Of a stretch of DNA of 64,000 bases, positions 3,528-62,731 are shown one piece after another. The position numbers and the translations under genes were made by a program. Below the pieces are notes generated by a model, which saw nothing but the letters and a program-made list of their open reading frames with translations, made no database searches and was not told where the DNA came from. Origin of the DNA: Patescibacteria group bacterium (lineage in GTDB: Bacteria; Patescibacteriota; Patescibacteriia; UBA9570; JAHJKD01). The stretch covers positions 15,063-79,062 of the forward strand of contig JBAZVM010000006.1 in the NCBI GenBank assembly GCA_041660885.1, read 5' to 3'. Position 1 is the first letter of the stretch. Each line of letters begins with the position of its first letter.

Positions 3528-4478
3528 TTAATAAAACATTTTACTGGTGGGAAAAAGTATCACGTCTTCCAAGCTGGTTTTATTGGTAAGTAGCATAATC
3601 AAGCGATCCACACCCAAGGCAATGCCGCCGCAAGGAGGCAAGCCCTTTTTTAATCCCGCGATGAATTCCATATCCACGGGATAGGCTTCTTTGCCTAATT
3701 TATTTCTTTCCTCTCTTTCCGCTTCCAAACGAGCAAACTGTTCTTGCCAATCTGTCAGTTCGGAAAAAGCATTGGCCAATTCTATGCCAGCGATATAAAG
3801 CTCAAAACGTTCCGCGAAAAATTCATTTTTCTTTTTAGAGAGCGCGGCCATAGATGCGGGGTAATCCGTTAAAAAAGTCGGTTTATCTTGCCCGAGCTTT
3901 CTTTCTATATCGGTTAAAAATATTTTATAGAATTTTTCCTCAAAATTAGTCTCTTGCATTAATTTTTTCAAATCAGTATTGGCGTATTTTTTAAAGGCCT
4001 GCTCGCAAGTAATATATTCCCAGGGAGGGGTTAAGTTTATTTTTTTGTTTTGATAGTTAAGATAATCTGATTTATTAAATTGCTTATTAATAAAATAAAT
4101 TAAATTTTCCGTGTCTTTGGCGATTCCCATATAATCCGTATTCACGCGATACCATTCCAGAATTTTAAATTCCAGATTATGAATGGGGGAGTTATCTTCT
4201 TCGTTTCTGAAAGCCGAAGTGATTTGAAAGATTTTTTCAAAGCCATCAGCAAGCAAGCGCTTCATGGCGTATTCCGGAGACATAATCAAATACGCCGGCT
4301 TTTTGGCGCCTTTAAAGCTAATCACTTCGGTTTTAAACGGCGTTAAATACGGCTCCATGCTGGGAACGGCTACCAGTTCCGGCGTGGCCACTTCTAGAAA
4401 TTTATTTTTTTTGAACCACTGCCGCGTGAAATCGGTTATGCGGCTGTAATTTTGCGCTATGGTTAATTTTTCTTTCAT
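3528..4478 (-). CDS. epmA: EF-P lysine ligase EpmA/GenX (truncated class II LysRS paralog)
   Basis: Class II aaRS motifs SPEYAMKRLL, FRNEE, ERFELYIAGIELANAF, GIALGVDRLIMLL. About 316 aa, with no anticodon-binding domain. Confidence 0.85.
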   Translation of the reverse strand: MKEKLTIAQNYSRITDFTRQWFKKNKFLEVATPELVAVPSMEPYLTPFKTEVISFKGAKKPAYLIMSPEYAMKRLLADGFEKIFQITSAFRNEEDNSPIHNLEFKILEWYRVNTDYMGIAKDTENLIYFINKQFNKSDYLNYQNKKINLTPPWEYITCEQAFKKYANTDLKKLMQETNFEEKFYKIFLTDIERKLGQDKPTFLTDYPASMAALSKKKNEFFAERFELYIAGIELANAFSELTDWQEQFARLEAEREERNKLGKEAYPVDMEFIAGLKKGLPPCGGIALGVDRLIMLLTNKTSLEDVILFPTSKMFY

Positions 4479-4537
4479 TGTCTTAGCTTATTATATTTTA
4501 TTAAATATTTCAATAGAAATATGGTATAATCAATATT

Positions 4538-6961
4538 ATGAAAAGAATAATTTTTGTTATTGTCTTTAGCGTATTTTTACTATCAAGTAATTACTGCTTG
4601 GCGCAGGAGTTAGATATTGGGGAATATGCTCCGGATGAAGTAATCGTGCAATTTCACGCGATAAATACCGATAAAATAGAAGCAGATAGACAATTATCTA
4701 GTTTTGCCGTGGCCAATGATATGGAATATACGGAATCTTTATTATTTGTTGATGCCGCGGTTTTTAAAATTAATAACGGGGAAACAGTATTGGAAGCTAT
4801 CACGAGGTTAAAAGAGAATCCGGCTGTTTCTTATGTCCAGCCGAATTTTCGCTATCATTCATTATCCATTGATACCAATGATCCTTATAAAGATTTTTTA
4901 TGGGGCTTGGATAACAGCGGGCAGACTATAAACACCGTGGTTGGCACGACTGACGCGGATATAGACGCTCCGGAAGCTTGGGCCATTAACGAAGGCACGA
5001 ATGAAGATGTTATTGTGGCTGTGATAGATATGGGAGTGGGCTATAACCATCCGGATCTAGTTAACCAGATGTGGGATGGCACAAATTGCCTGGATGAAAA
5101 CGGCAATTATTTGGGCGGATGCGTTCATGGCTATGACTACGGATACGACGATAAAGACCCTTTGCCCAATGGTGATTCCCACGGCACGCATGTTTCCGGC
5201 ACCATTGCCGCGGAAAAGAATAACGGCTTTGGCATCGCGGGAGTGGCGCCTCAAGCGACGATCATGGCTCTACAAGCCACGCAATCAGACGGATATTTTT
5301 ATGATACGGAAATAATGAAGTCTATAAATTTTGCCAAGCAAAACGGCGCCAGCGTTATTAATGCCAGCTTTGGCGGCGGATCTTTCGCTTGCTTTTTTAT
5401 TTACGATGAACTGACCTACAACGCCATCGCGGATTTTCCCGGATTGTTCGTGGTCGCCGCGGGAAACGATAGCGCGGAACACGATGGATCCAATTATGTG
5501 GTCGTGCCCGCGGATTACGGGCACCCGAGCGATTGCTGGGACGGGTTAGATAATGTTATTAGCGTGGCCGCGACAGACTCCAACGATGAGCTGGCATCTT
5601 TTTCCGATTATGGCGCAAATTTTATAGATGTCGGCGCACCCGGTGCAGATACTTTAAGCAGCGTCGCGGAAAATTTTTATCTGTATGAAACTTTCGGCAA
5701 TACCGCAACTGGATCTCTTCCTGCTAGCTGGACCAGTTCCGGTGGTAACTGGGGTGCGGGTTCTGTCGCCACTTTTAACAGCGAATCATCTTGGGGCCAG
5801 GTGCTGTACCCAGATGTTAGTGGTGTCGCCACTACCGGCTATTATTACGCGGGAAGCGATAGCAGTTCTATCACTTCGCCGGTTTACGATTTAAGCGCTG
5901 CCAGCACCGAAGCCACTTTTAATTTTCGCGCCAGATGCGACACGGAGTATGTGGAAACGCCGCACGATTATATGGCGCTTTCTTTCAGCGCGGACGGTAT
6001 TACCTTTACCCCCGTGAGCTTGTCTTATTACGGCGATGAAAAAATTGATGAATATATTTTAGACAGCATCGAAGGAGATTATGATTCTGACAATGATACT
6101 TATTCATATTTTGATGATGTGGCTTTAGATGGATATTTTACCGGTAATTTTCAGTTTCGTTTTTCTTGGGTTTCCGATGGCGATGATAATGCGCATCGAG
6201 GATGTGTTGTTGATAATATTTCCGTAAATATAATGGGAGACGGTTCAGCGGACGAGTATGATTATTACAGCGGCACATCCATGGCCGCGCCGCATGTTTC
6301 GGGCTTAGCCGCTTTGTTAATGGGGTACCGCCCCAATTTAACAGCGGCGCAGGTAAAATCCGTAATTTTGGAATCCGGCGACAGTTTGGATTCTTTGTCC
6401 GGCAAAACCGTAACCGGAAAAAGAATCAATGCTTATAACGCCTTGGCCAATTCCGATTTTCCCAATCCGCCTACTGTTAATACTCTTAAAACTCCCACGA
6501 AAAAAGCCACCAAGACTATTTCCGGAACCAAAGACGCCAATACATCCGTATTGTTAAATGGCGAAAGAATTGTTGAAAGAGATAGCGCTGCAACTTGGAG
6601 TTACGAGTTAACCTTAACAGAAGGCGTTAATAATCTTAGCTTTACTTCTAAAAATTCTAGTGGCTTGGAAAGCGCGGCCGCGGAAACCGCGGTTACTCTG
6701 GATACTACCGCGCCAAAGATTCGTTCTAATTATCACACCGGCACGTATCATCATCAGCGCAGAATGAGATTATCCTGCAATGAAGTGTGCACGCTTTATT
6801 ACACGCGCGATAAAACTAAACCCACAAAGCATTCAAAAAAATATAAGCATTCCTTTCTCGTAAAACAAAGCAAGACCATTAAAATCGTAGCATTTGACCA
6901 ATTAAATAATAAATCCGATATTAAAAAAATAATAATTCATATTGACTATATTAAAAAATAA
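4538..6961 (+). CDS. secreted subtilisin-like serine protease (peptidase S8) with a long C-terminal extension
   Basis: Signal peptide. Catalytic motifs VAVIDMGV (Asp), HGTHVSGTIAA (His), GTSMAAPHVSGLAALL (Ser). Confidence 0.9.
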   Translation: MKRIIFVIVFSVFLLSSNYCLAQELDIGEYAPDEVIVQFHAINTDKIEADRQLSSFAVANDMEYTESLLFVDAAVFKINNGETVLEAITRLKENPAVSYVQPNFRYHSLSIDTNDPYKDFLWGLDNSGQTINTVVGTTDADIDAPEAWAINEGTNEDVIVAVIDMGVGYNHPDLVNQMWDGTNCLDENGNYLGGCVHGYDYGYDDKDPLPNGDSHGTHVSGTIAAEKNNGFGIAGVAPQATIMALQATQSDGYFYDTEIMKSINFAKQNGASVINASFGGGSFACFFIYDELTYNAIADFPGLFVVAAGNDSAEHDGSNYVVVPADYGHPSDCWDGLDNVISVAATDSNDELASFSDYGANFIDVGAPGADTLSSVAENFYLYETFGNTATGSLPASWTSSGGNWGAGSVATFNSESSWGQVLYPDVSGVATTGYYYAGSDSSSITSPVYDLSAASTEATFNFRARCDTEYVETPHDYMALSFSADGITFTPVSLSYYGDEKIDEYILDSIEGDYDSDNDTYSYFDDVALDGYFTGNFQFRFSWVSDGDDNAHRGCVVDNISVNIMGDGSADEYDYYSGTSMAAPHVSGLAALLMGYRPNLTAAQVKSVILESGDSLDSLSGKTVTGKRINAYNALANSDFPNPPTVNTLKTPTKKATKTISGTKDANTSVLLNGERIVERDSAATWSYELTLTEGVNNLSFTSKNSSGLESAAAETAVTLDTTAPKIRSNYHTGTYHHQRRMRLSCNEVCTLYYTRDKTKPTKHSKKYKHSFLVKQSKTIKIVAFDQLNNKSDIKKIIIHIDYIKK

Positions 6962-55774: not shown

Positions 55775-55824
55775 CAAAGATATCCACAGTATAAAATTGC
55801 CATTTTAATATAGAGTGATACTAT
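55775..55824 (+). promoter_or_regulatory. 14-mer CAAAGATATCCACA box plus promoter upstream of the tRNA-like gene
   Basis: Box at 55775-55788. TTGCCA at 55797-55802, 16-nt spacer, TACTAT at 55819-55824. The same box-plus-promoter layout recurs at 56113-56164. Confidence 0.45.
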
Positions 55825-55832
55825 TTCTTTAG

Positions 55833-55875
55833 AGGTACTGTTGCTCGTATACTACGGGCAAAAGTGACTTGTCAA
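55833..55875 (-). repeat. inverted, degenerate copy of the tRNA-like 5-prime half plus a perfect 13-bp inverted repeat
   Basis: The reverse complement of 55833-55859 (GCCCGTAGTATACGAGCAACAGTACCT) matches 55927-55955 at 23 of 29 aligned positions. AGTGACTTGTCAA (55863-55875) is the exact reverse complement of 55956-55968. Confidence 0.6.
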
Positions 55876-55924
55876 TATATAGGCGTCCCAAATAGGGCGC
55901 TTTTATATTTATATGGTGGATCCC

Positions 55925-55999
55925 GGGCCCGTAGTGTAATGGCAGCACAGTACCTTTGACAAGTCACTAGTGCGGGTTCAATTCCCGTCGGGTCCACCA
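55925..55999 (+). tRNA. tRNA-like gene with encoded CCA but no canonical anticodon stem (possible pseudo-tRNA or recombination-scarred tRNA)
   Basis: 75 nt in total. Acceptor stem GGGCCCG/CGGGTCC. D arm GTGT-AATGGCA-GCAC. T arm GCGGG-TTCAATT-CCCGT. Discriminator A followed by CCA. The 17-nt anticodon-arm slot GTACCTTTGACAAGTCA cannot form a 5-bp stem. Confidence 0.6.
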
Positions 56000-56032
56000 C
56001 CTAAAAAACAACATTATTTAAATAACATTAAT

Positions 56033-56105
56033 AAACCCCAATGCCCTGTGCTCCGCCGTAGCGTAGCCGCTAGGCTGCGCAGAGGCGAGAATTTGGGGTT
56101 TATTT
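56033..56105 (+). terminator. long compound hairpin with U-rich tail downstream of the tRNA-like gene
   Basis: Outer stem AAACCCCAAT / ATTTGGGGTTT. Inner GC-rich hairpin GCGTAGCC-GCTA-GGCTGCGC (56061-56080). Followed by TTTATTT. Confidence 0.55.
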
Positions 56106-56112
56106 GTACCCC

Positions 56113-56164
56113 CAAAGATATCCACACCATAGGTATTGACAATATCCTCGCTCGGGTGTATTAT
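56113..56164 (+). promoter_or_regulatory. CAAAGATATCCACA box plus near-consensus sigma70 promoter driving the island leader
   Basis: Box at 56113-56126. TTGACA at 56136-56141, exact 17-nt spacer, TATTAT at 56159-56164. Confidence 0.65.
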
Positions 56165-56167
56165 AGC

Positions 56168-56896
56168 TGGTTCTTTTAAAATCAATTTTTGCCCTTACCG
56201 TTCAGCAAGCAATTGCTGGCCGGGTTATCCGTAACAAAAAAGCCTCAATCTAACCTTGAATTTGCAGGAGTGTTATACGGATGGAGGTTTTTTTGTTGCG
56301 GATATAAAGGGCTGCAACATACAGCGTCCGAAGGCCTCTGCCCCGCCTTGGCGGGGAAGAGGTCCGCGGTTCGCTGATATCCCTTCGAAGCTCGAGTGAA
56401 ACGAGAGCGAAGGAGGATGAATGAAGCAAATTGATATGCTCTTTACAATAGATTTATAAGCCACGCGGGAAACCAGGTTAAGGGCAGCAGGAATGTTATA
56501 TATAGGCACTTGCCTTCGAAAGCTCGTCCTATTGGTGGTGATATTATTATCGCTATTAATAGATCGAGCTTTTGGGCAAGTGCGCATAGCATTTCTACTG
56601 TCCTTGACCTGGCCCGCGTCCCTGTGAAGTTCCGAAAGGAACTGAACAGGACGGCGCGCCAGAACCCACTGAAGTGAACCCGAATGGGTACTTCACTGAA
56701 GGGGACCCCGATGGGCCCTTCAGGGAGATCGGAAACGATCTTCACGGGGATCCGAAAGGGTCTCTTGAGAGATTCGAAAGAATTTCTCGGGTATCCTGGC
56801 ATAGGGCCGGGTCAGTCATGGATAACGAGACATCACCGAGTGCGACCGCAACACAGGGCCGCACTTTTCCAGCAACTCCAAACGAGGTTAACAGCC
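56168..56896 (+). ncRNA. about 0.7 kb highly structured leader or large ncRNA candidate (many GNRA-capped hairpins)
   Basis: No credible ORF. Hairpins: 56203-56218 (GCAA loop), long-range helix 56226-56246 with 56283-56307, 56335-56362, 56382-56412, helix 56506-56527 with 56564-56584, 56621-56650 (CCTGT-GA-AGTTCC-GAAA-GGAACT-GA-ACAGG), 56696-56723, and three back-to-back GAAA hairpins at 56726-56741, 56746-56765 and 56767-56788. Confidence 0.55.
56840..56868 (+). terminator. possible attenuator hairpin just upstream of the cassette-1 RBS
   Basis: GTGCGACC-GCAACACAG-GGCCGCAC followed by TTTT. GAGG RBS at 56884-56887. Confidence 0.35.
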
Positions 56897-57640
56897 ATGA
56901 TGACCCTTCTGGCCCTTCTGACCCTGAACGCCTTCGCCGACGAGCCCGTCATCGACCGCATCATCATCCGCTCGTTCCCGACCGAGGCGGCCCCGATCGA
57001 TCCGTGCACGGACCCCTGCGCCAAGCCGGAGCCCGTCGTCAAGTACGTCGACACGGGCACGAACGACCACGACCAGGCGATTGCCGAGAGCGACAACGCC
57101 GCCGACGTCGCGATCGCCGAGAGTGCCGACGGCCGCGACATCGCCATCGCCACGGTCGAGTCCACAACCACGCTCGGTCTCGCCACCGAGGAGACCAAGC
57201 AGCAGGCGGCGCTGAGCCCGACGATCGAAGACGTCGCCCGAGCCGCTGCAGCTGGTGGGGCGCCGCTCTACATCAACATGGAGACCGGCATCATCAGCAC
57301 CGGCCGGCCCATGTACACCTCCGAGATCGTCGCCACGCAGGAAGGGAACCCCGCGGACCCGAAGACCAGCCTCACCTACGCCACCGGGCGCAAGGTGACC
57401 TCCTCGCAGCTCCGCGGCCTCCAGCCCCTCGACATCCGCCACAACGGCCACCTCGACTGGGCCCCGGCGATCGCGGCCACCGTCGTTGGATTCGCCGCGG
57501 GCTTCATCGCCGGCGGTGACTACCAGCACATCAACGACGGGCAGACCGACACCCTCTACGCGAACTACGGGCTCCGGTCCGTCCTCGCGGGCGCGGGCGT
57601 CGGCGCGGCCACCGGCGGGCTGGCCCTGTTCACCTTCTAG
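56897..57640 (+). CDS. high-GC cassette 1: secreted/membrane protein (247 aa) with Gly-zipper-like C-terminal helices
   Basis: GAGG RBS 9 nt upstream. Signal peptide MMTLLALLTLNAFA-DEP. GC3-rich codons. Repeats D(x)AIAES. C-terminal GFAAGFIAGG and AGAGVGAATGGLALFTF. Confidence 0.7.
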   Translation: MMTLLALLTLNAFADEPVIDRIIIRSFPTEAAPIDPCTDPCAKPEPVVKYVDTGTNDHDQAIAESDNAADVAIAESADGRDIAIATVESTTTLGLATEETKQQAALSPTIEDVARAAAAGGAPLYINMETGIISTGRPMYTSEIVATQEGNPADPKTSLTYATGRKVTSSQLRGLQPLDIRHNGHLDWAPAIAATVVGFAAGFIAGGDYQHINDGQTDTLYANYGLRSVLAGAGVGAATGGLALFTF

Positions 57641-57825
57641 CCTCTGGCTGGAGGTGAGCCCCGATCTTGGCCACGGGTGAGTTGGCCAAAAAACACTGCC
57701 CCGGGTTCCTTCACGAAGGGACCTGGGCAACTGGGAGGAGAAGTGAGATCAATCAAGACACAGCATCTTCTCTTCCCTTCCAGTTCAGTGCTTCTTAGCA
57801 AAGCTAGGGAGCAGTGAGAATGGAA
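57641..57825 (+). ncRNA. cassette 3-prime structured module, copy 1 (pseudoknot, mid hairpin, SD-like hairpin HP1, hairpin HP2)
   Basis: Pseudoknot: CCCG-ATCTTGGCCA-CGGG (57660-57677) with loop TTGGCCA pairing to TGGCCAA (57683-57689). Mid hairpin 57700-57727. HP1 57729-57785, with core GGGAGGAGAAG / CTTCTCTTCCC. HP2 57789-57813. Confidence 0.6.
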
Positions 57826-58021
57826 TTCGTTCTTTACAATAAAATCCGATTCAATAGCCCATTTGCAGGATAACCGGGCTGCGAAATATGACTGCATCAT
57901 AAATGATGTATCCATATTCCGTGGCCTGGCCTGCTAGGGTGCCTAAGTTCTTGTGCAGAGGGATTGTCCCACCGCGCATTTACCCCGGCTCCTTTTGGGC
58001 TGGGCCAGAACACGGTAACAC

Positions 58022-58042
58022 GGCCCTACTATCTATAGGGCC
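58022..58042 (+). promoter_or_regulatory. leader hairpin immediately upstream of the cassette-2 RBS
   Basis: GGCCCTA-CTATCTA-TAGGGCC, followed by a GGAG RBS at 58049-58052. Confidence 0.4.
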
Positions 58043-58058
58043 ATCACTGGAGAACGCC

Positions 58059-58502
<444 letters not shown>

Positions 58503-58685
58503 TCTCGGTGCCAGCTAGTCCGATCTTGATCCCGGACGATAATTGTGGATCACACCTACAGCCCCGAGTCCTAGATAGGACATCGGGCAACTGGGAGGAG
58601 AAGTGAGATCATACATGTTACAGCATCTTCTCTTCCCTTCCAGTTCAGTGCTTCTTAGCAAAGCTAGGGAGCAGTGAGAATGGAA
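58503..58685 (+). ncRNA. cassette 3-prime structured module, copy 2
   Basis: Pseudoknot: GTCCG-ATCTTGATCC-CGGAC (58518-58537) with loop TGATCC pairing to GGATCA (58547-58552). Mid hairpin 58563-58587. HP1 58589-58645. HP2 58649-58673. The last 100 nt equal copy 1 except for a 10-nt loop segment. Confidence 0.6.
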
Positions 58686-58698
58686 AAGGGGAGTAACT

Positions 58699-58782
58699 GA
58701 ATCACAGATTACGCAGATAAATATAGATAACACAGATATATTTTTAAGAGTAATCAGTATTAATCTGTGTAATCTGTGATTC
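58699..58782. mobile_element. CACAGAT-type inverted-repeat element A (MITE-like, no ORF)
   Basis: Left arm GAATCACAGATTACGCAGATAAA. The right arm reverse complement is GAATCACAGATTACACAGATTAA. 38-bp AT-rich centre. Confidence 0.55.
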
Positions 58783-58841
58783 AACGCCCTATGAGAAAAT
58801 CGTCGTACCTTTAAATTTATTATCAACCCCTTAACGGGTTT

Positions 58842-58897
58842 CAGGTCATGGAAGATGCGCGTTATATGAAAATATAACGATCGTCTCCCATGACCTG
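58842..58897 (+). promoter_or_regulatory. 56-nt extended hairpin with GAAA tetraloop in the cassette-3 leader
   Basis: 26-bp stem (3 mismatches, 1 GU pair) capped by GAAA. Its 3-prime arm overlaps the conserved GACCTGGCCCGCG motif. Confidence 0.55.
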
Positions 58898-58981
58898 GCC
58901 CGCGCCAGAGCTCGCACAAGGAGCATCCTGGCCAAGAAAGGGTCGGGTCAGTCTTGGGGTCACCCAGAACAGGAGTATGCC

Positions 58982-59296
58982 GTGAACATCAACTCGTGGT
59001 GGAAGTGGCTGTTGACCGTCGTCGTCACCCTCGTGGTCTTCGGACTCGGCATCGTCGTCGGGCACTACGCGTGGACTCCGTCCAACGCGCCCGTCGTCGT
59101 CGCGCAGTCCCAGACCTACCCCGACTTCCAGCAGCTCGCCGCGCTTGCCGCGAGCGGGTACGAGGTGGAGGTGGTCTACAACACCCCCGCCACCGTCCCC
59201 GTCGAGGTGCCGGTCTACGTGCCCGTCGAGGTCGAGCGCATCCCGGCCGAGGAGCCGAGCAAGGGCTCCAAGGCGTCGAAGGCCCCCGCGCGCTAG
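58982..59296 (+). CDS. high-GC cassette 3: small N-terminally anchored protein (104 aa)
   Basis: AGGAG RBS 6 nt upstream of the GTG start. TM helix WKWLLTVVVTLVVFGLGIVVG. Val/Pro/Glu-rich tail. Confidence 0.6.
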   Translation: MNINSWWKWLLTVVVTLVVFGLGIVVGHYAWTPSNAPVVVAQSQTYPDFQQLAALAASGYEVEVVYNTPATVPVEVPVYVPVEVERIPAEEPSKGSKASKAPAR

Positions 59297-59470
59297 CAGT
59301 AGCGCATGGGATAGTCCGACTCTGACCCCGGACGAAAATTGTGGGTCAAAGCTACGAAAGGGTACCCTTCGGGGGACCCGCGGGAGGGAACTGAGATATG
59401 ACTGCAACAGCATGTTCTCTCCCTTCCGCAAAAGTGTTCGTGAGGTTTCTACATAAATAAACCTCGAGAA
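59297..59470 (+). ncRNA. cassette 3-prime structured module, copy 3 (diverged, with compensatory changes)
   Basis: Pseudoknot: GTCCG-ACTCTGACCC-CGGAC (59314-59333) with loop TGACCC pairing to GGGTCA (59343-59348). Mid hairpin with UUCG loop 59360-59379. HP1 GGGAGGGAAC / GTTCTCTCCC 59382-59423. Terminal hairpin 59442-59465. Confidence 0.6.
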
Positions 59471-59486
59471 TAGTTAGCGGAATAAA

Positions 59487-59597
59487 GGTATCACAGACGG
59501 AATCACAGATTACACAGATAAATAAAAAATAAACACAGATAAGAAAACATCTGTGCAATCTGTGATCAATGTATTTATCTGCGGCATCCGTGATTCC
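59487..59597. mobile_element. CACAGAT-type inverted-repeat element B (MITE-like, no ORF)
   Basis: Outer inverted repeat 59499-59524 versus 59572-59597 (22 of 26 match). Nested inner CACAGAT/ATCTGTG repeats. Confidence 0.55.
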
Positions 59598-59648
59598 CTT
59601 ACTCCTTGCTGGACATATTAATTATTTCAGGTATTATAATAAACAAGG

Positions 59649-59675
59649 CGGCTCCCAATGCGGAGGCGTTTTTTT
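59649..59675 (+). terminator. intrinsic terminator
   Basis: CGGCTCC-CAATGC-GGAGGCG stem followed by T7. Confidence 0.55.
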
Positions 59676-59691
59676 ATTTATGGCGATGAAT

Positions 59692-60169
59692 GAATCACAA
59701 ATCACACAGATAAATCTCCGGATGGTATCGATAATTAATTTATTTAATATAAATATATGGAAGAAAATAATAAGGAAATAACATATAAAGTTATAGGTGT
59801 TGCTTATGAAGTACATAATAATTTGGGACCGGGGTTTCAAGAGGTTATTTATCAAAGGGCGCTGGCGCGAGAATTTATGGCAAAAAATATTAATTTCGCG
59901 CGTGAAGAATGGATTCCGGTATACTATAAAAATACCGTAATTGGAAAAAGAAGAGTGGATTTTACACTGTCAAAAATCATCGTCGAAATAAAAGCAAGAG
60001 CTGAAATTAAACCTAAAGATTACATTCAAACTTTATCATATTTAAAAGCGACTAAATTTAAAATAGCTCTGCTATTAAATTTTGGTACGAAACAACTACA
60101 AGTCAAACGATTTATTAATTAATCTAGTTATCTGTGTTTATCTGCATTCATTTGTGTCATCTGTGATTC
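59692..60169. mobile_element. CACAGAT-type inverted-repeat element C carrying the GxxExxY gene
   Basis: Left arm GAATCACAAATCACACAGATAAAT (59692-59715). The right arm reverse complement is GAATCACAGATGACACAAAT (60150-60169). Confidence 0.55.
59757..60122 (+). CDS. GxxExxY family protein (PD-(D/E)XK nuclease-like)
   Basis: 121 aa. Eponymous motif GFQEVIY. Overall pattern YxVIGxAxEVHxxLGxGFxExxYxxAL...RxDFxxxxxIVEIKA...LNFG matches recalled family members. Confidence 0.8.
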   Translation: MEENNKEITYKVIGVAYEVHNNLGPGFQEVIYQRALAREFMAKNINFAREEWIPVYYKNTVIGKRRVDFTLSKIIVEIKARAEIKPKDYIQTLSYLKATKFKIALLLNFGTKQLQVKRFIN

Positions 60170-60187
60170 AGCTACTCCCTTTTGTTC

Positions 60188-60216
60188 TTGACATTTTCCT
60201 CTTCGCATGTTACGTT
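60188..60216 (+). promoter_or_regulatory. candidate promoter for cassette 4
   Basis: TTGACA at 60188-60193, 17-nt spacer, TACGTT at 60211-60216. Confidence 0.45.
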
Positions 60217-60404
60217 ATTTCGTTCTCCTGCCCATTTCCCATGGGGATTTTTGCGGCGAATTTTTGTGTTTATTTTAGCCGTATAAACCCCCAAAGGACA
60301 ATGGGGAGTTTCTCAAGCCGTTACCACAGGGGTGGAACGGCGATGTGCGACAGGAAGAGAGAACCCGCCCTCCCACGATAGTGGGACGGCATAGTGAGAA
60401 GACA

Positions 60405-61661
<1,257 letters not shown>

Positions 61662-61750
61662 GTTTTTTTGGCAGCGCCCCGCTATGGCGAGGTGCCTGCC
61701 CCCGGGAGGAGAAGTGAGATTGTCAGCTACTGCATCTTCTCTTCCCTCCC
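61662..61750 (+). ncRNA. cassette 3-prime module, copy 4 (a different upstream hairpin, then HP1)
   Basis: GGCAG(CGCC-CCGCTAT-GGCG)AGGTGCCTGCC hairpin. HP1 GGGAGGAGAAG / CTTCTCTTCCC at 61704-61746, with loop TGAGAT-TGTCAGCTAC-TGCAT. Confidence 0.5.
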
Positions 61751-61876
61751 GACGTATTATCCTTTAATCCTTAGAGGCTAGTATATTGGGAGAACAAGCC
61801 CGTGTTCTCCATGTACTCCGTGTCTTCGTGATTCAGTTCCGGAATCATTGTAACTTCGTAAAAAATATGTCATAAT

Positions 61877-62731
61877 TTGGCTATGTTAAGAAATTGTTTC
61901 TATTATTTTTTTGGTATTATAATTTTATTCATTAATAAAATAAGATACGGCTTTTTTGGATATAAAAAACCGCGAGATTTTCCGGTTTCGGCTATGGAAA
62001 AGGCCATTAAATACGATCAGTCCGTGGTTGATGGCTGGCTGATAAATCTAAAACAATACGAGGGCATGGATATCAAAGATAAAACCGTGCTGGAATTAGG
62101 CCCGGGAGCCGATTTAGGCATTGCCCTGCTTTTATTAAACAAAGGCGCGAAAAAATATACGGCTTTGGATGTAAATAATTTGGTTGAAACCGTGCCCGAA
62201 TTATTCTATGAAAAATTATTGGAAAGCATCAATAATAAGGAATTAATCAGCGCTTTAAAAGATAAAAATAAAATAAATTATATTTGCGATAAAAATTTCA
62301 ATATTTCAAAAATAAATATTGAAGATAGCGCAATAATATTCAGCCAAGCCGCGTTTGAACATTTCAGCGATCCGGAAAAAGCCTTAGAGCAATTAAGCCA
62401 AACAGCAAAATCTGGCGCTATTCTGATAGCCGAGGTGGATTTGCAAACGCACACTAAGTGGCTGCGCGAAAAAGATCCTTTAAACATTTATCGTTATGCC
62501 AATAATATATATAATTTATTCCATTTTTCCGGAATACCAAACAGAATCCGTCCGCAGGAATATAAAAAAATATTGGAAAAAAATAATTGGAAGAATGTAG
62601 TGATTAAACCGAAGAATATCTTAAGCGGCCAAGAGCTAAAAAAAATAAGCCCCAGGCTGGCTGAACCGTTTAATCAGGAATCAGCTCAAATGCAAACGCT
62701 CAGTTTTATTTTATGCGCCACCAAAAAGTAA
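61877..62731 (+). CDS. class I SAM-dependent methyltransferase
   Basis: Motif I VLELGPGADLG. Rossmann-like layout. The probable start is ATG 61883. Confidence 0.75.
   Translation: MAMLRNCFYYFFGIIILFINKIRYGFFGYKKPRDFPVSAMEKAIKYDQSVVDGWLINLKQYEGMDIKDKTVLELGPGADLGIALLLLNKGAKKYTALDVNNLVETVPELFYEKLLESINNKELISALKDKNKINYICDKNFNISKINIEDSAIIFSQAAFEHFSDPEKALEQLSQTAKSGAILIAEVDLQTHTKWLREKDPLNIYRYANNIYNLFHFSGIPNRIRPQEYKKILEKNNWKNVVIKPKNILSGQELKKISPRLAEPFNQESAQMQTLSFILCATKK

Follow-up and report, generated by a model that had tools for sequence, protein, structure and literature searches.

HP1 is a hairpin of roughly 45 nt that occurs in four copies in a 64-kb stretch of DNA from a Patescibacteria group bacterium (contig JBAZVM010000006.1); this whole stretch is called the window throughout. 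Each copy ends a GC-rich gene cassette, and the four cassettes form an island in the chromosome. Our preferred reading, held tentatively at a probability of about 40%, is that HP1 is a sense-strand RNA hairpin at the 3' end of the cassette transcripts, which would act in protection, in processing or in termination without a U tract, and whose apex is free to vary. We infer this RNA-level function; the position, anatomy, strand bias, covariation and conservation of the hairpin can be seen in the DNA itself and are described first.

Results and Discussion

Position of HP1 in the cassettes

The GC content of the window is about 40%, and four blocks of 62-70% GC lie between 56.6 and 61.75 kb. These blocks start directly after a tRNA gene (55925-55999) and each contains one open reading frame (ORF) on the plus strand. 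A block with its ORF is referred to here as a cassette (cassettes 1 to 4). HP1 lies in the non-coding tail of the plus-strand ORF, about 40-95 nt past the stop codon and with no ORF between, in all six copies considered here. Four of these copies are in the window (Table 1) and two are on L006, a 6.4-kb metagenomic contig of the same design. HP1 is the final GC-rich element of each cassette and is followed by AT-rich DNA or by a second hairpin, HP2. In cassette 4 and its L006 ortholog HP1 sits on the GC-to-AT boundary, and the other copies stand directly before HP2. A sequence-only reading of the window, made before this analysis, had described HP1 in all four cassettes with its stems and its TGAGAT...GCAT flanks, and HP2 behind the first two copies; both hairpins were found as described.

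A degenerate HP1 pattern gave three exact matches in the window and none in 100 shuffles, and the 3' arm gave four matches where 0.42 were expected. No fifth copy was found in the 64 kb by a hairpin scan seeded on GGAGG together with a covariance model.

There is no U tract after HP1, and the sequence that follows the stems is not U-rich. The terminator scan called neither HP1 nor HP2, so that neither has the form of an intrinsic (Rho-independent) terminator. Host-type terminators with a stem and U7 are present nearby (about 59648-59675 and L006:3964-3999). The promoter scan called no promoter between the tail of cassette 1 and cassette 2. Thus, HP1 would be intercistronic at this site, which fits a role as a processing site or stabiliser.

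Anatomy, covariation and strand bias

The six copies, which come from two genomes, were registered by hand in an alignment fitted to the structure. The basal helix has 10-12 pairs across the copies, with an 11-bp core, and its purine strand is 5' and its pyrimidine strand 3'. It is followed by a 5' bulge, UGAGAU (UGAUCU in one copy and absent in one), and by an apical helix of the form UG-N-CWG / CWG-CA with a loop of 3-4 nt. Pairing in the basal helix is 98.5% over the six copies and two of its pairs are changed on both sides, counts which, from a hand-fitted alignment of six rows, are supportive rather than decisive. G-C to C-G swaps occur at both ends of this helix. The apical helix is fully paired in cassette 3, cassette 4 and both L006 copies, with two further compensated pairs, and an A-U pair is replaced by U-A between the cassette 4 orthologs. 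The covariation claimed by the sequence-only reading is therefore present, as is the shorter, compensated stem by which cassette 3 was said to keep the fold.

The mean pairwise identity over the six copies was 0.91 in the 5' basal arm and 0.83 in the 3' basal arm, 0.87 in the bulge, 0.78 in the apical 3' strand, 0.49 in the apical 5' strand and 0.35 in the apical loop. The check proposed with the earlier reading, whether variation is concentrated in a segment of about 10 nt, thus gave a positive answer, with identities of 0.35-0.49 in that segment against 0.83-0.91 in the arms.

HP1 alone folds with z scores of -2.1 to -7.8, and the whole 3' tails gave z scores of -4.1 to -5.1 against shuffles. 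The sense strand was more stable than the antisense strand in nine of 12 segments of the untranslated regions (UTRs), owing to G-U pairs. The covariance model scores the copies at 35-51 bits on the plus strand and at 11-14 bits on the minus strand, which is lower by 20-35 bits.

Table 1. Features of the cassette island and of the related HP1 copies on L006. Positions are those of the window unless L006 is named. GC3, GC content at third codon positions; MFE, minimum free energy; CM, covariance model R1.
Feature	Position (strand)	Description
HP1, cassette 1	57733..57777 (+)	Basal helix GGGAGGAGAAG / CTTCTCTTCCC, bulge TGAGAT, apex unpaired; MFE -18.4, z -2.2; CM 50.5 bits
HP1, cassette 2	58593..58637 (+)	Same as the cassette 1 copy except at 5 apex positions; CM 51.2 bits; identical in L010
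HP1, cassette 3	59382..59423 (+)	Stem shorter by one pair, G-C to C-G swap, apical helix AUG(A)CUG-CAA-CAGCAU; z -4.0; CM 40 bits; identical in L005 and L009-L012
HP1, cassette 4	61704..61746 (+)	Basal helix as in cassettes 1 and 2, apical helix UG(U)CAG-CUA-CUGCA; CM 41 bits; ortholog at L006:5454-5497
HP1, L006 ortholog of cassette 4	L006:5454-5497	5' arm the same as in cassette 4, two changes in the 3' arm
HP1, L006 cassette 3-like	L006:380-420	Different but complementary stem (CGGAGGUGGAGAG / CUCUCCCCUCCG), GCAA tetraloop, then HP2 like that of cassettes 1 and 2
HP1-HP2 module, copy 1	57725..57825 (+)	101 nt, repeat family D6
HP1-HP2 module, copy 2	58585..58685 (+)	101 nt, repeat family D6
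8-nt segment with all five differences between cassettes 1 and 2	57752..57759 (+)	Counterpart at 58612-58619
Upstream part of the cassette 1 3' tail	57641..57732 (+)	Hairpins HP0 and HPa; homologous tails at 58503-58592, 59297-59381 and 61662-61703
HP2, cassette 1	57778..57825 (+)	UUCCA ... GCUUCUUAGC-AAA-GCUAGGGAGC ... UGGAA; same element at 58638-58685
HP2-related element after cassette 3	59424-59482	
Cassette 1 ORF	56897..57640 (+)	247 aa, signal peptide, orphan; GC3 0.93
Cassette 2 ORF	58059..58502 (+)	Lipoprotein, DTDTD linker, Cys-rich C-terminal domain; GC3 0.91
Cassette 3 ORF	58982..59296 (+)	104 aa, N-terminal membrane helix; GC3 0.97
Cassette 4 ORF	60405..61661 (+)	Lipoprotein, MopE-type repeats, rare C-terminal domain as in cassette 2; GC3 0.93

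Conservation between two genomes

The protein P0088, encoded on L006, is the only full-length homolog of the cassette 4 protein (49% identity, 99% coverage), and in both genomes the cassette adjoins the same O-antigen-ligase-like gene, which is 57% identical in protein. Four-fold degenerate sites of the two cassette 4 orthologs are near saturation, since the third base agrees at 45 of 78 sites and composition by itself would predict a fraction of about 0.49. In the tails behind them, the 5' arm of HP1 is identical at 11 of 11 positions, the 3' arm at 9 of 11 and the 48 nt downstream at 42 positions, with the interior of the hairpin identical at only 14 of 22. Judged by this comparison, HP1 is under purifying selection except at its apex, because the tail is conserved while the four-fold sites are near saturation. 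The AT-rich flanks on both sides of cassette 4 are also conserved between the two genomes.

The repeat in cassettes 1 and 2

The HP1-HP2 modules of cassettes 1 and 2 form a gapless repeat with 95% identity, and beyond its limits the two cassettes do not align at equal offset. The near-identical repeat reported by the sequence-only reading is thus confirmed, with five differences in 101 nt, all of which lie within 8 nt. By direct comparison, they are at 57752 (A>T), 57753 (T>A), 57756 (A>T), 57758 (A>T) and 57759 (C>T). If five changes were placed randomly on 101 sites, such clustering would have a probability of about 2.5e-5. The simplest guess is that several bases changed in one event or that a third copy supplied a short patch by conversion. 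A template-switch origin was rejected; the cassette 2 copy has just a 6-nt palindrome (ACATGT), and inspection revealed no inverted template nearby. Signs of a diversity-generating retroelement were also absent, as the changes are not adenine-specific and no reverse transcriptase was found.

Several assemblies cover part of the island. The L010 contig covers 58394-60128 and the L009 contig covers 58656-60730, and each is 100% identical to the window. Four other assemblies, which have different accessions, are 100% identical over 58394-60730, a segment that includes the hairpins of cassettes 2 and 3 and several junctions between GC-rich and AT-rich DNA. Because the HP1 copies of cassettes 2 and 3 are byte-identical in independent assemblies, their loops and the junctions are not assembly noise, which had been named as a way in which the earlier reading could fail, and the mosaic is no chimera. 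This check reaches the copies of cassettes 2 and 3, and those of cassettes 1 and 4 rest on the window's own assembly. The proteins of cassettes 1 to 4 and a methyltransferase had no record as exact proteins in look-ups.

The variable apex

The sequence-only reading had proposed that a variable 10-mer displayed in the loop of HP1 is a cassette-specific address, such as a kissing loop, guide or barcode, to be read by an RNA or protein partner. No support for such an address was found, and we regard it as very improbable. The apex does differ in every copy, it is an open loop in cassettes 1 and 2, and the clustering of their differences is highly non-random. However, the 10-mer corresponds to the 5' strand and loop of the apical helix and pairs with the conserved CAGCAU in four of the six copies (cassettes 3 and 4 and both L006 copies), so that in these it is not displayed in a loop. 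The proposed comparison of the loop 10-mers with possible targets, made here within the window, gave no complement or match beyond chance. For example, loop k-mers and their complements gave nothing beyond chance across the window except for one 11-mer of the cassette 3 apex, which recurs at 57886. When RNA duplexes between each loop and the island were calculated, 4-8 of 25 shuffled loops (16-32%) did as well. The loops of cassettes 2 and 3 are invariant across the assemblies that cover them, with no sign of ongoing diversification. Lastly, there is no CRISPR array, reverse transcriptase, recombinase or bridge-recombinase context in the 31 window ORFs scanned and the Rfam scans.

Local alignment of the HP1 interiors with the island matched the cassette 3 interior to 57883-57899 at 15 of 17 positions (shuffle p about 0.005 before correction for multiple tests) and the cassette 4 interior to its own ORF (p about 0.04); neither similarity is secure after eight tests. 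The first of these pairs GAAATATGACTGCATCA (57883-57899), in the 5' hairpin upstream of cassette 2, with GAGATATGACTGCAACA (59393-59409), the bulge and apex of the cassette 3 copy, and the likeness may signal short patches copied between hairpins.

The proposed role of HP1

As precedents, 3' stem-loops and repetitive extragenic palindromic (REP) elements stabilise the mRNA upstream of them, and hairpin terminators that lack a U tract are frequent in high-GC bacteria. In the reading that we prefer, HP1 would be the terminal and best-conserved stem-loop of a structured 3' tail carried by each high-GC cassette of a variable island. The candidate roles are a terminator without a U tract, an RNase processing site and a barrier to 3' exonucleases; HP1 would thereby delimit and stabilise the cassette transcript, or would be a processing site between co-transcribed cassettes. 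Constraint would fall on the purine/pyrimidine basal helix of 11 bp, on the UGAGAU bulge of the 5' side and on the CAGCAU strand, and the conservation of the bulge and of this strand in the alignment suggests contact with a protein. The apex would need only to close the hairpin and would thus drift or be swapped, which would account for the concentration of variation in it. Cassettes 1 and 2 would owe their near-identical 101 nt to recent copying or gene conversion of the HP1-HP2 module.

Several observations weigh against this proposal. First, the apex of cassettes 1 and 2 is unpaired, with an open loop of about 19 nt, or of 23 nt on the hand-registered structure. Secondly, the apex is asymmetric, since its 3' strand CAGCAU is conserved and its 5' strand is not; a plain helix predicts otherwise. 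Third, five changes in 8 nt amid 96 identical positions are not to be expected from relaxed constraint alone. In addition, an identical basal helix is found on three unrelated ORFs (cassettes 1, 2 and 4) with differing neighbouring sequence, and the types of tail are shuffled relative to the types of ORF; together, these two observations point to recombination centred on HP1. For example, cassettes 2 and 3 share HP0 at 82% (repeat family D15), cassettes 1 and 2 share HP1-HP2, and the cassette 3-like ORF of L006 bears a tail of the cassette 1 and 2 type. Lastly, no HP1 was found in the cassettes of L013 (300-2016), a third locus described below, though their tails are structured.

The main rival, which we consider unlikely but worth weighing, places HP1 at the DNA level, as a recombination or mobility site with which a mobile gene cassette ends on its 3' side. 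In action it would be comparable to the attC site of integrons or to the subterminal hairpins of IS200/IS605, REP and IS91-type elements. Recombination at the hairpin would incidentally have left a variable centre flanked by conserved arms. The place of HP1 at the boundary of every cassette, the helix shared by unrelated ORFs, the mosaic tails, the confinement of the cassette 1 and 2 differences to the centre and the recurrence of the cassette 3 interior at 57883-57899 all favour such a site. So do the start of the island behind a tRNA gene and the interleaving of the L006 cassettes with HicAB and HEPN/nucleotidyltransferase modules, a mixture often seen in chromosomal integron arrays. However, no direct-repeat target duplications or attC-type core sites were found, and the scan of 31 window ORFs and the gene calls of L006 yielded no integrase, transposase or HUH/Y1 nuclease. 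Folding favours the sense (top) strand, and there is no structural variation across the other assemblies over the 58394-60730 segment that they cover. Also, at least cassette 4 and its L006 ortholog are each served by a promoter of their own within AT-rich DNA, and their AT-rich flanks are conserved on both sides, so the inherited unit is larger than the GC-rich block.

HP2 appears to be part of the island backbone, because an HP2-type element is also present at L006:3846-3897 behind a low-GC gene that has no HP1 in front of the element.

Cassette genes and their translation signals

Away from the island, the window is ordinary chromosome with genes for GlmS, ComEC, PFK, an aldolase, RF, Lgt, DsbA, a hydrogenase subunit and others. 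The cassette ORFs encode secreted or membrane proteins, and their GC3 is 0.91-0.97, against 0.2-0.45 for the host genes. No homologs of the cassette 1 protein were found. The matches of the cassette 2 protein share only its signal peptide and DTDTD linker, and relatives with this architecture are on contigs of uniformly 55-72% GC. MopE-type repeats such as those of cassette 4 are typical of Myxococcota, and a MopE repeat in Sandaracinus was the sole match when the island was compared with plasmids and phages by BLAST.

A Cys-rich C-terminal domain (CxLxAAxxCxxIxSTYGS) is common to cassette 2, cassette 4 (61440-61658), P0088 and P0192. The search with the cassette 4 domain identified only three relatives among 1.84 billion representative proteins, besides cassette 2, which is too diverged for a single-sequence search to detect. 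Two of the three relatives are strong, and both are in the same kind of cassette.

A Shine-Dalgarno (SD) site of -6.4 to -10.6 kcal/mol precedes five of the six cassette ORFs of the window and L006, and both cassettes of L013 are also led by an SD. These sites are GAGG, GGAG or GGAGG at the correct spacing. Only two of 46 host genes have a site at or below -6 kcal/mol, and plain A/T precedes the host starts. All of these counts assume a generic anti-SD sequence, as the 16S gene lies outside the window, and ORF starts as listed.

The sequence-only reading had described the 5' arm of HP1 as an SD-like tract sequestered in the stem. The GGAGG core is solid and does sit in the stem, but the wider resemblance to the complement of a 16S 3' end is weak and needs 4-6 inserted bases. 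This tract raises two further explanations. In the first, which we think improbable, HP1 is a translational switch with an SD mimic in its 5' arm and an anti-SD mimic in its 3' arm. The pyrimidine arm of the opened hairpin would pair with the ribosome-binding site (RBS) of its own or the next cassette, like icaR in Staphylococcus aureus, or the purine arm would capture 30S subunits. The arms have the sequences that this calls for (GGAGG in the 5' arm; CUUCC or CCUCC in the 3' arm, and CACCUCC in the L006 copy of cassette 4), a real SD is present on five of the six ORFs, and SD-like tracts are unusual in this genome. Four of the six RBSs pair strongly with their own 3' arm, and pairing with the own 3' arm was -9.2 to -15.6 kcal/mol in five of the six against a host median of -2.2. 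PMC3868564 offers a precedent for anti-SD motifs in 3' UTRs. However, this complementarity is generic, as any SD pairs with any CCUCC-like tract; cassette 1 gives only -3.7 kcal/mol, no covariation links arm and RBS, and no such duplex approaches the stability of the intramolecular hairpin. The window does not include the 16S 3' end of the organism.

In the second explanation, which is extremely unlikely, the tract is the RBS of a small ORF that begins within HP1 (GGAGG, 4 nt, GUG) and encodes a short peptide. All six copies can be read for 13-24 codons from a GUG or AUG after GGAGG. However, the putative peptides show no relationship in length or C-terminus, their recurring SLPS would come from any CT-rich tract, and the start codon is inside or adjoining a stable helix. 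The small ORF was rejected on the frames of the 3' arm, which differ between cassettes 1 and 2, cassettes 3 and 4, and the L006 copy of cassette 4.

Related loci and the distribution of HP1

In L006 the cassettes lie in AT-rich DNA with HicAB and three HEPN/nucleotidyltransferase modules. A cassette 3-like high-GC cassette is at the left end (1-480) and the cassette 4 ortholog is at 4150-5500, and both end in HP1. L013, which was reached through the rare C-terminal domain, has two GC-rich secreted-protein cassettes between flanks of 23-36% GC. The cassette GC3 was 0.91-0.97 in the window (56600-61750), 0.88-0.89 in L006 and 0.59-0.70 in L013, in three AT-rich genomes.

The exact HP1 pattern (TGAGAT...GCAT) gave only four chance matches, all inside coding regions, in one genome for each of 185,579 species, and in metagenome contigs it matched only a 1.2-kb copy of the window itself; this pattern is too narrow and would miss both L006 copies. 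Viral contigs contained no match for HP1, the HP2 tail, two motifs of the cassette 4 tail or the promoter motif of L006. In Rfam only the tRNA passes the gathering threshold, and a scan by E-value of 55800-62000 gave only weak chance matches of microRNA type. HP1 belongs to no described family.

These results bear on the idea that HP1 is functionless, a donor-type hairpin or REP-like repeat imported with the high-GC genes and homogenised by gene conversion, which seems to us rather unlikely. The cassette ORFs resemble high-GC bacterial proteins in their MopE repeats and their combination of a lipoprotein with DTDTD, the cassette 2-type relatives are on high-GC contigs, and the L013 cassettes do without HP1, all of which favour this idea. 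However, the tail and the HP1 arms are conserved between orthologs near synonymous saturation, the stems covary, and the species-wide scan returned only chance matches for its narrow pattern.

Leaders, promoters and spacers of the island

The promoters lie in AT-rich DNA upstream of the cassettes and are near-consensus sigma-70 promoters where visible (cassette 4, its L006 ortholog and L013). A low-GC PD-(D/E)XK gene is located between cassettes, as are host-type AT-rich inverted repeats (GAATCACAGAT...). These inverted repeats, with GAATCAC(A/G)... and ...GTGATTCA motifs and with CACAGAT units in the window and CACGAA units in L006, lie between the island's modules. They were found at 58685-58783, 59497-59605, 59689-59715, 60128-60183 and 61820-61836 and at L006:475-665 and 3900-3930, and one copy is elsewhere in the chromosome (27505). 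Small GC-rich palindromes of the type CCCCGCC-TTGG-GGCGGGG are also present in the AT-rich spacers of both genomes (56340-56365; L006:3864-3880 and 6330-6359), and in L006 one of them takes the place of the inner hairpin of the HP2-type element.

The tRNA gene at the border of the island scored 47 bits in Rfam and has its CCA encoded; ARAGORN left its anticodon unassigned ('tRNA-???'). Behind it, in 56136-56317, is a near-consensus promoter, TTGACA-17-TATTAT, followed about 70-170 nt downstream by a long, terminator-like hairpin of an A-run and a U-run (arms 56213-56250 and 56280-56317). The pair may belong to a small RNA, or a very long leader of cassette 1 may start here. That leader contains five or six short hairpins in series at 56620-56800, several with GAAA-type tetraloops, and a 27-nt tandem unit at 56667-56722; over its 297 nt, the leader has a folding energy of -142 kcal/mol.

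A conserved 5' hairpin, CGCGGG-AAA-CCAGGT ... GACCTGG-CCCGCG, lies upstream of cassette 1 (56464-56618), cassette 2 (about 57866-57935, with covariation) and cassette 3 (about 58836-58912). Its 3' strand can alternatively pair downstream, just before the RBS (partners 56804-56813 and 58927-58936), so that the two folds exclude one another in the manner of an attenuator or switch. A candidate 12-codon leader ORF with its own GGAGG (MKQIDMLFTIDL, 56412-56459) ends 4 nt before the 5' strand of the cassette 1 hairpin, where a terminating ribosome could decide between the two folds.

At 59610-59675 and at L006:3930-3999 a promoter is followed almost at once by a canonical terminator with a stem and U7. 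The two sites are 81% identical over 36 nt, and the conserved pair suggests a very short transcript or a regulatory leader. In L006:660-3130 a promoter-like motif of about 32 nt (GGTGGACTTTTTTTGGTTTTTTTGGTAGCATAT) is located about 4-7 nt before the first start codon of four HicAB/HEPN/nucleotidyltransferase modules, so close that the mRNAs would have no leader or almost none. A fifth copy, which is more diverged, is upstream of the cassette 4 ortholog (L006:3934-3966).

What HP1 marks

As an RNA element HP1 is probably of an ordinary kind, a stem-loop at the 3' end, and the interest is in what it marks. It tags genes that are foreign to the carrier chromosome in composition (GC3 above 0.9), in translation signals and in protein types. 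At least cassette 4 and its non-coding tail have been kept between genomes in which the adjoining host gene has diverged to 57% identity. Ordinary amelioration should have erased the composition of the cassettes, but the cassette 4 orthologs keep a GC3 near 0.9; recurrent import, selection on the RNA or another process would each explain this persistence. The direct question is whether the cassettes are imported again and again, held by RNA selection or mobilised by some unknown mechanism. With HP1 and its covariance model, such cassettes could be sought in other genomes of the candidate phyla radiation.

A broader interpretation, to which we give little credence, is that the cassettes are so far undescribed expression units of episymbiotic Patescibacteria, written in a high-GC, SD-using style and encoding secreted proteins or lipoproteins of Myxococcota type, with HP1 as their shared terminal signature and the apex as an identifier of each cassette. 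If this were true, HP1 could be read by dedicated machinery for cassette exchange, RNA protection, sorting or export, and the cassettes could be units meant for expression in the host cell, by analogy with T-DNA.

Comparison with known systems

HP1 was compared with four known systems. The integron attC site shares with HP1 the single hairpin at the 3' end of each cassette, the array in one orientation, the conserved outer arms, the unpaired spacer and the variable terminal structure, and attC arrays too are mixed with toxin-antitoxin modules. However, inspection of the four window tails and both L006 tails revealed no RYYYAAC / GTTRRRY pair at the module ends; the HP1 module starts with GGGCAAYW and ends with GAGAAKGGAA. 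In addition, attC folds on the bottom strand, unlike HP1, and no recombinase that could be IntI was identified in the 31 window ORFs scanned or the called genes of L006. Cassette 4 and its L006 ortholog also differ from integron cassettes in having their own promoter, all cassettes have long structured leaders, and HP1 is absent from the modules of the same island that are not GC-rich. The attC reading was rejected on core sites and strand.

REP and BIME elements, which are mobilised by RAYT (TnpA-REP), resemble HP1 as short imperfect palindromes in 3' UTRs or between cistrons, with conserved stems and a free loop. They are thought to stabilise the mRNA upstream, and homogenisation of copies within a genome is also common to both. 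However, in place of the high, dispersed copy number of REP and REPIN elements, HP1 has only four copies in 64 kb, in one island and all on foreign-looking cassettes. Its arms are purine/pyrimidine without a GTAG or CGTC head, its sense strand is clearly the better folder, and no RAYT gene or Y1 transposase was found among the 31 window ORFs scanned.

The interaction between the 3' UTR and 5' UTR of icaR (PMC3868564) likewise depends on a long bacterial 3' UTR with an anti-SD-like tract rich in pyrimidines, which can pair with the RBS of its own mRNA. In HP1, unlike in icaR, the tract is already paired with an SD-like partner in the same hairpin, and no specific long-range complementarity was found.

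Lastly, hairpins that stabilise or process 3' ends, such as the RNase III sites of phage T7, the 3' retroregulator of cry in Bacillus thuringiensis and the high-GC terminators without a U tract, share with HP1 the form of a long, irregular hairpin whose helix is broken by an internal bulge, a location at mRNA 3' ends or between them, and the lack of a following U tract. These hairpins are the model followed in our preferred reading. They have no sequence relationship with HP1, and the comparison is one of architecture and general knowledge only. HP1 is best filed with the general class of 3'-UTR or extragenic hairpins, as a new variant.

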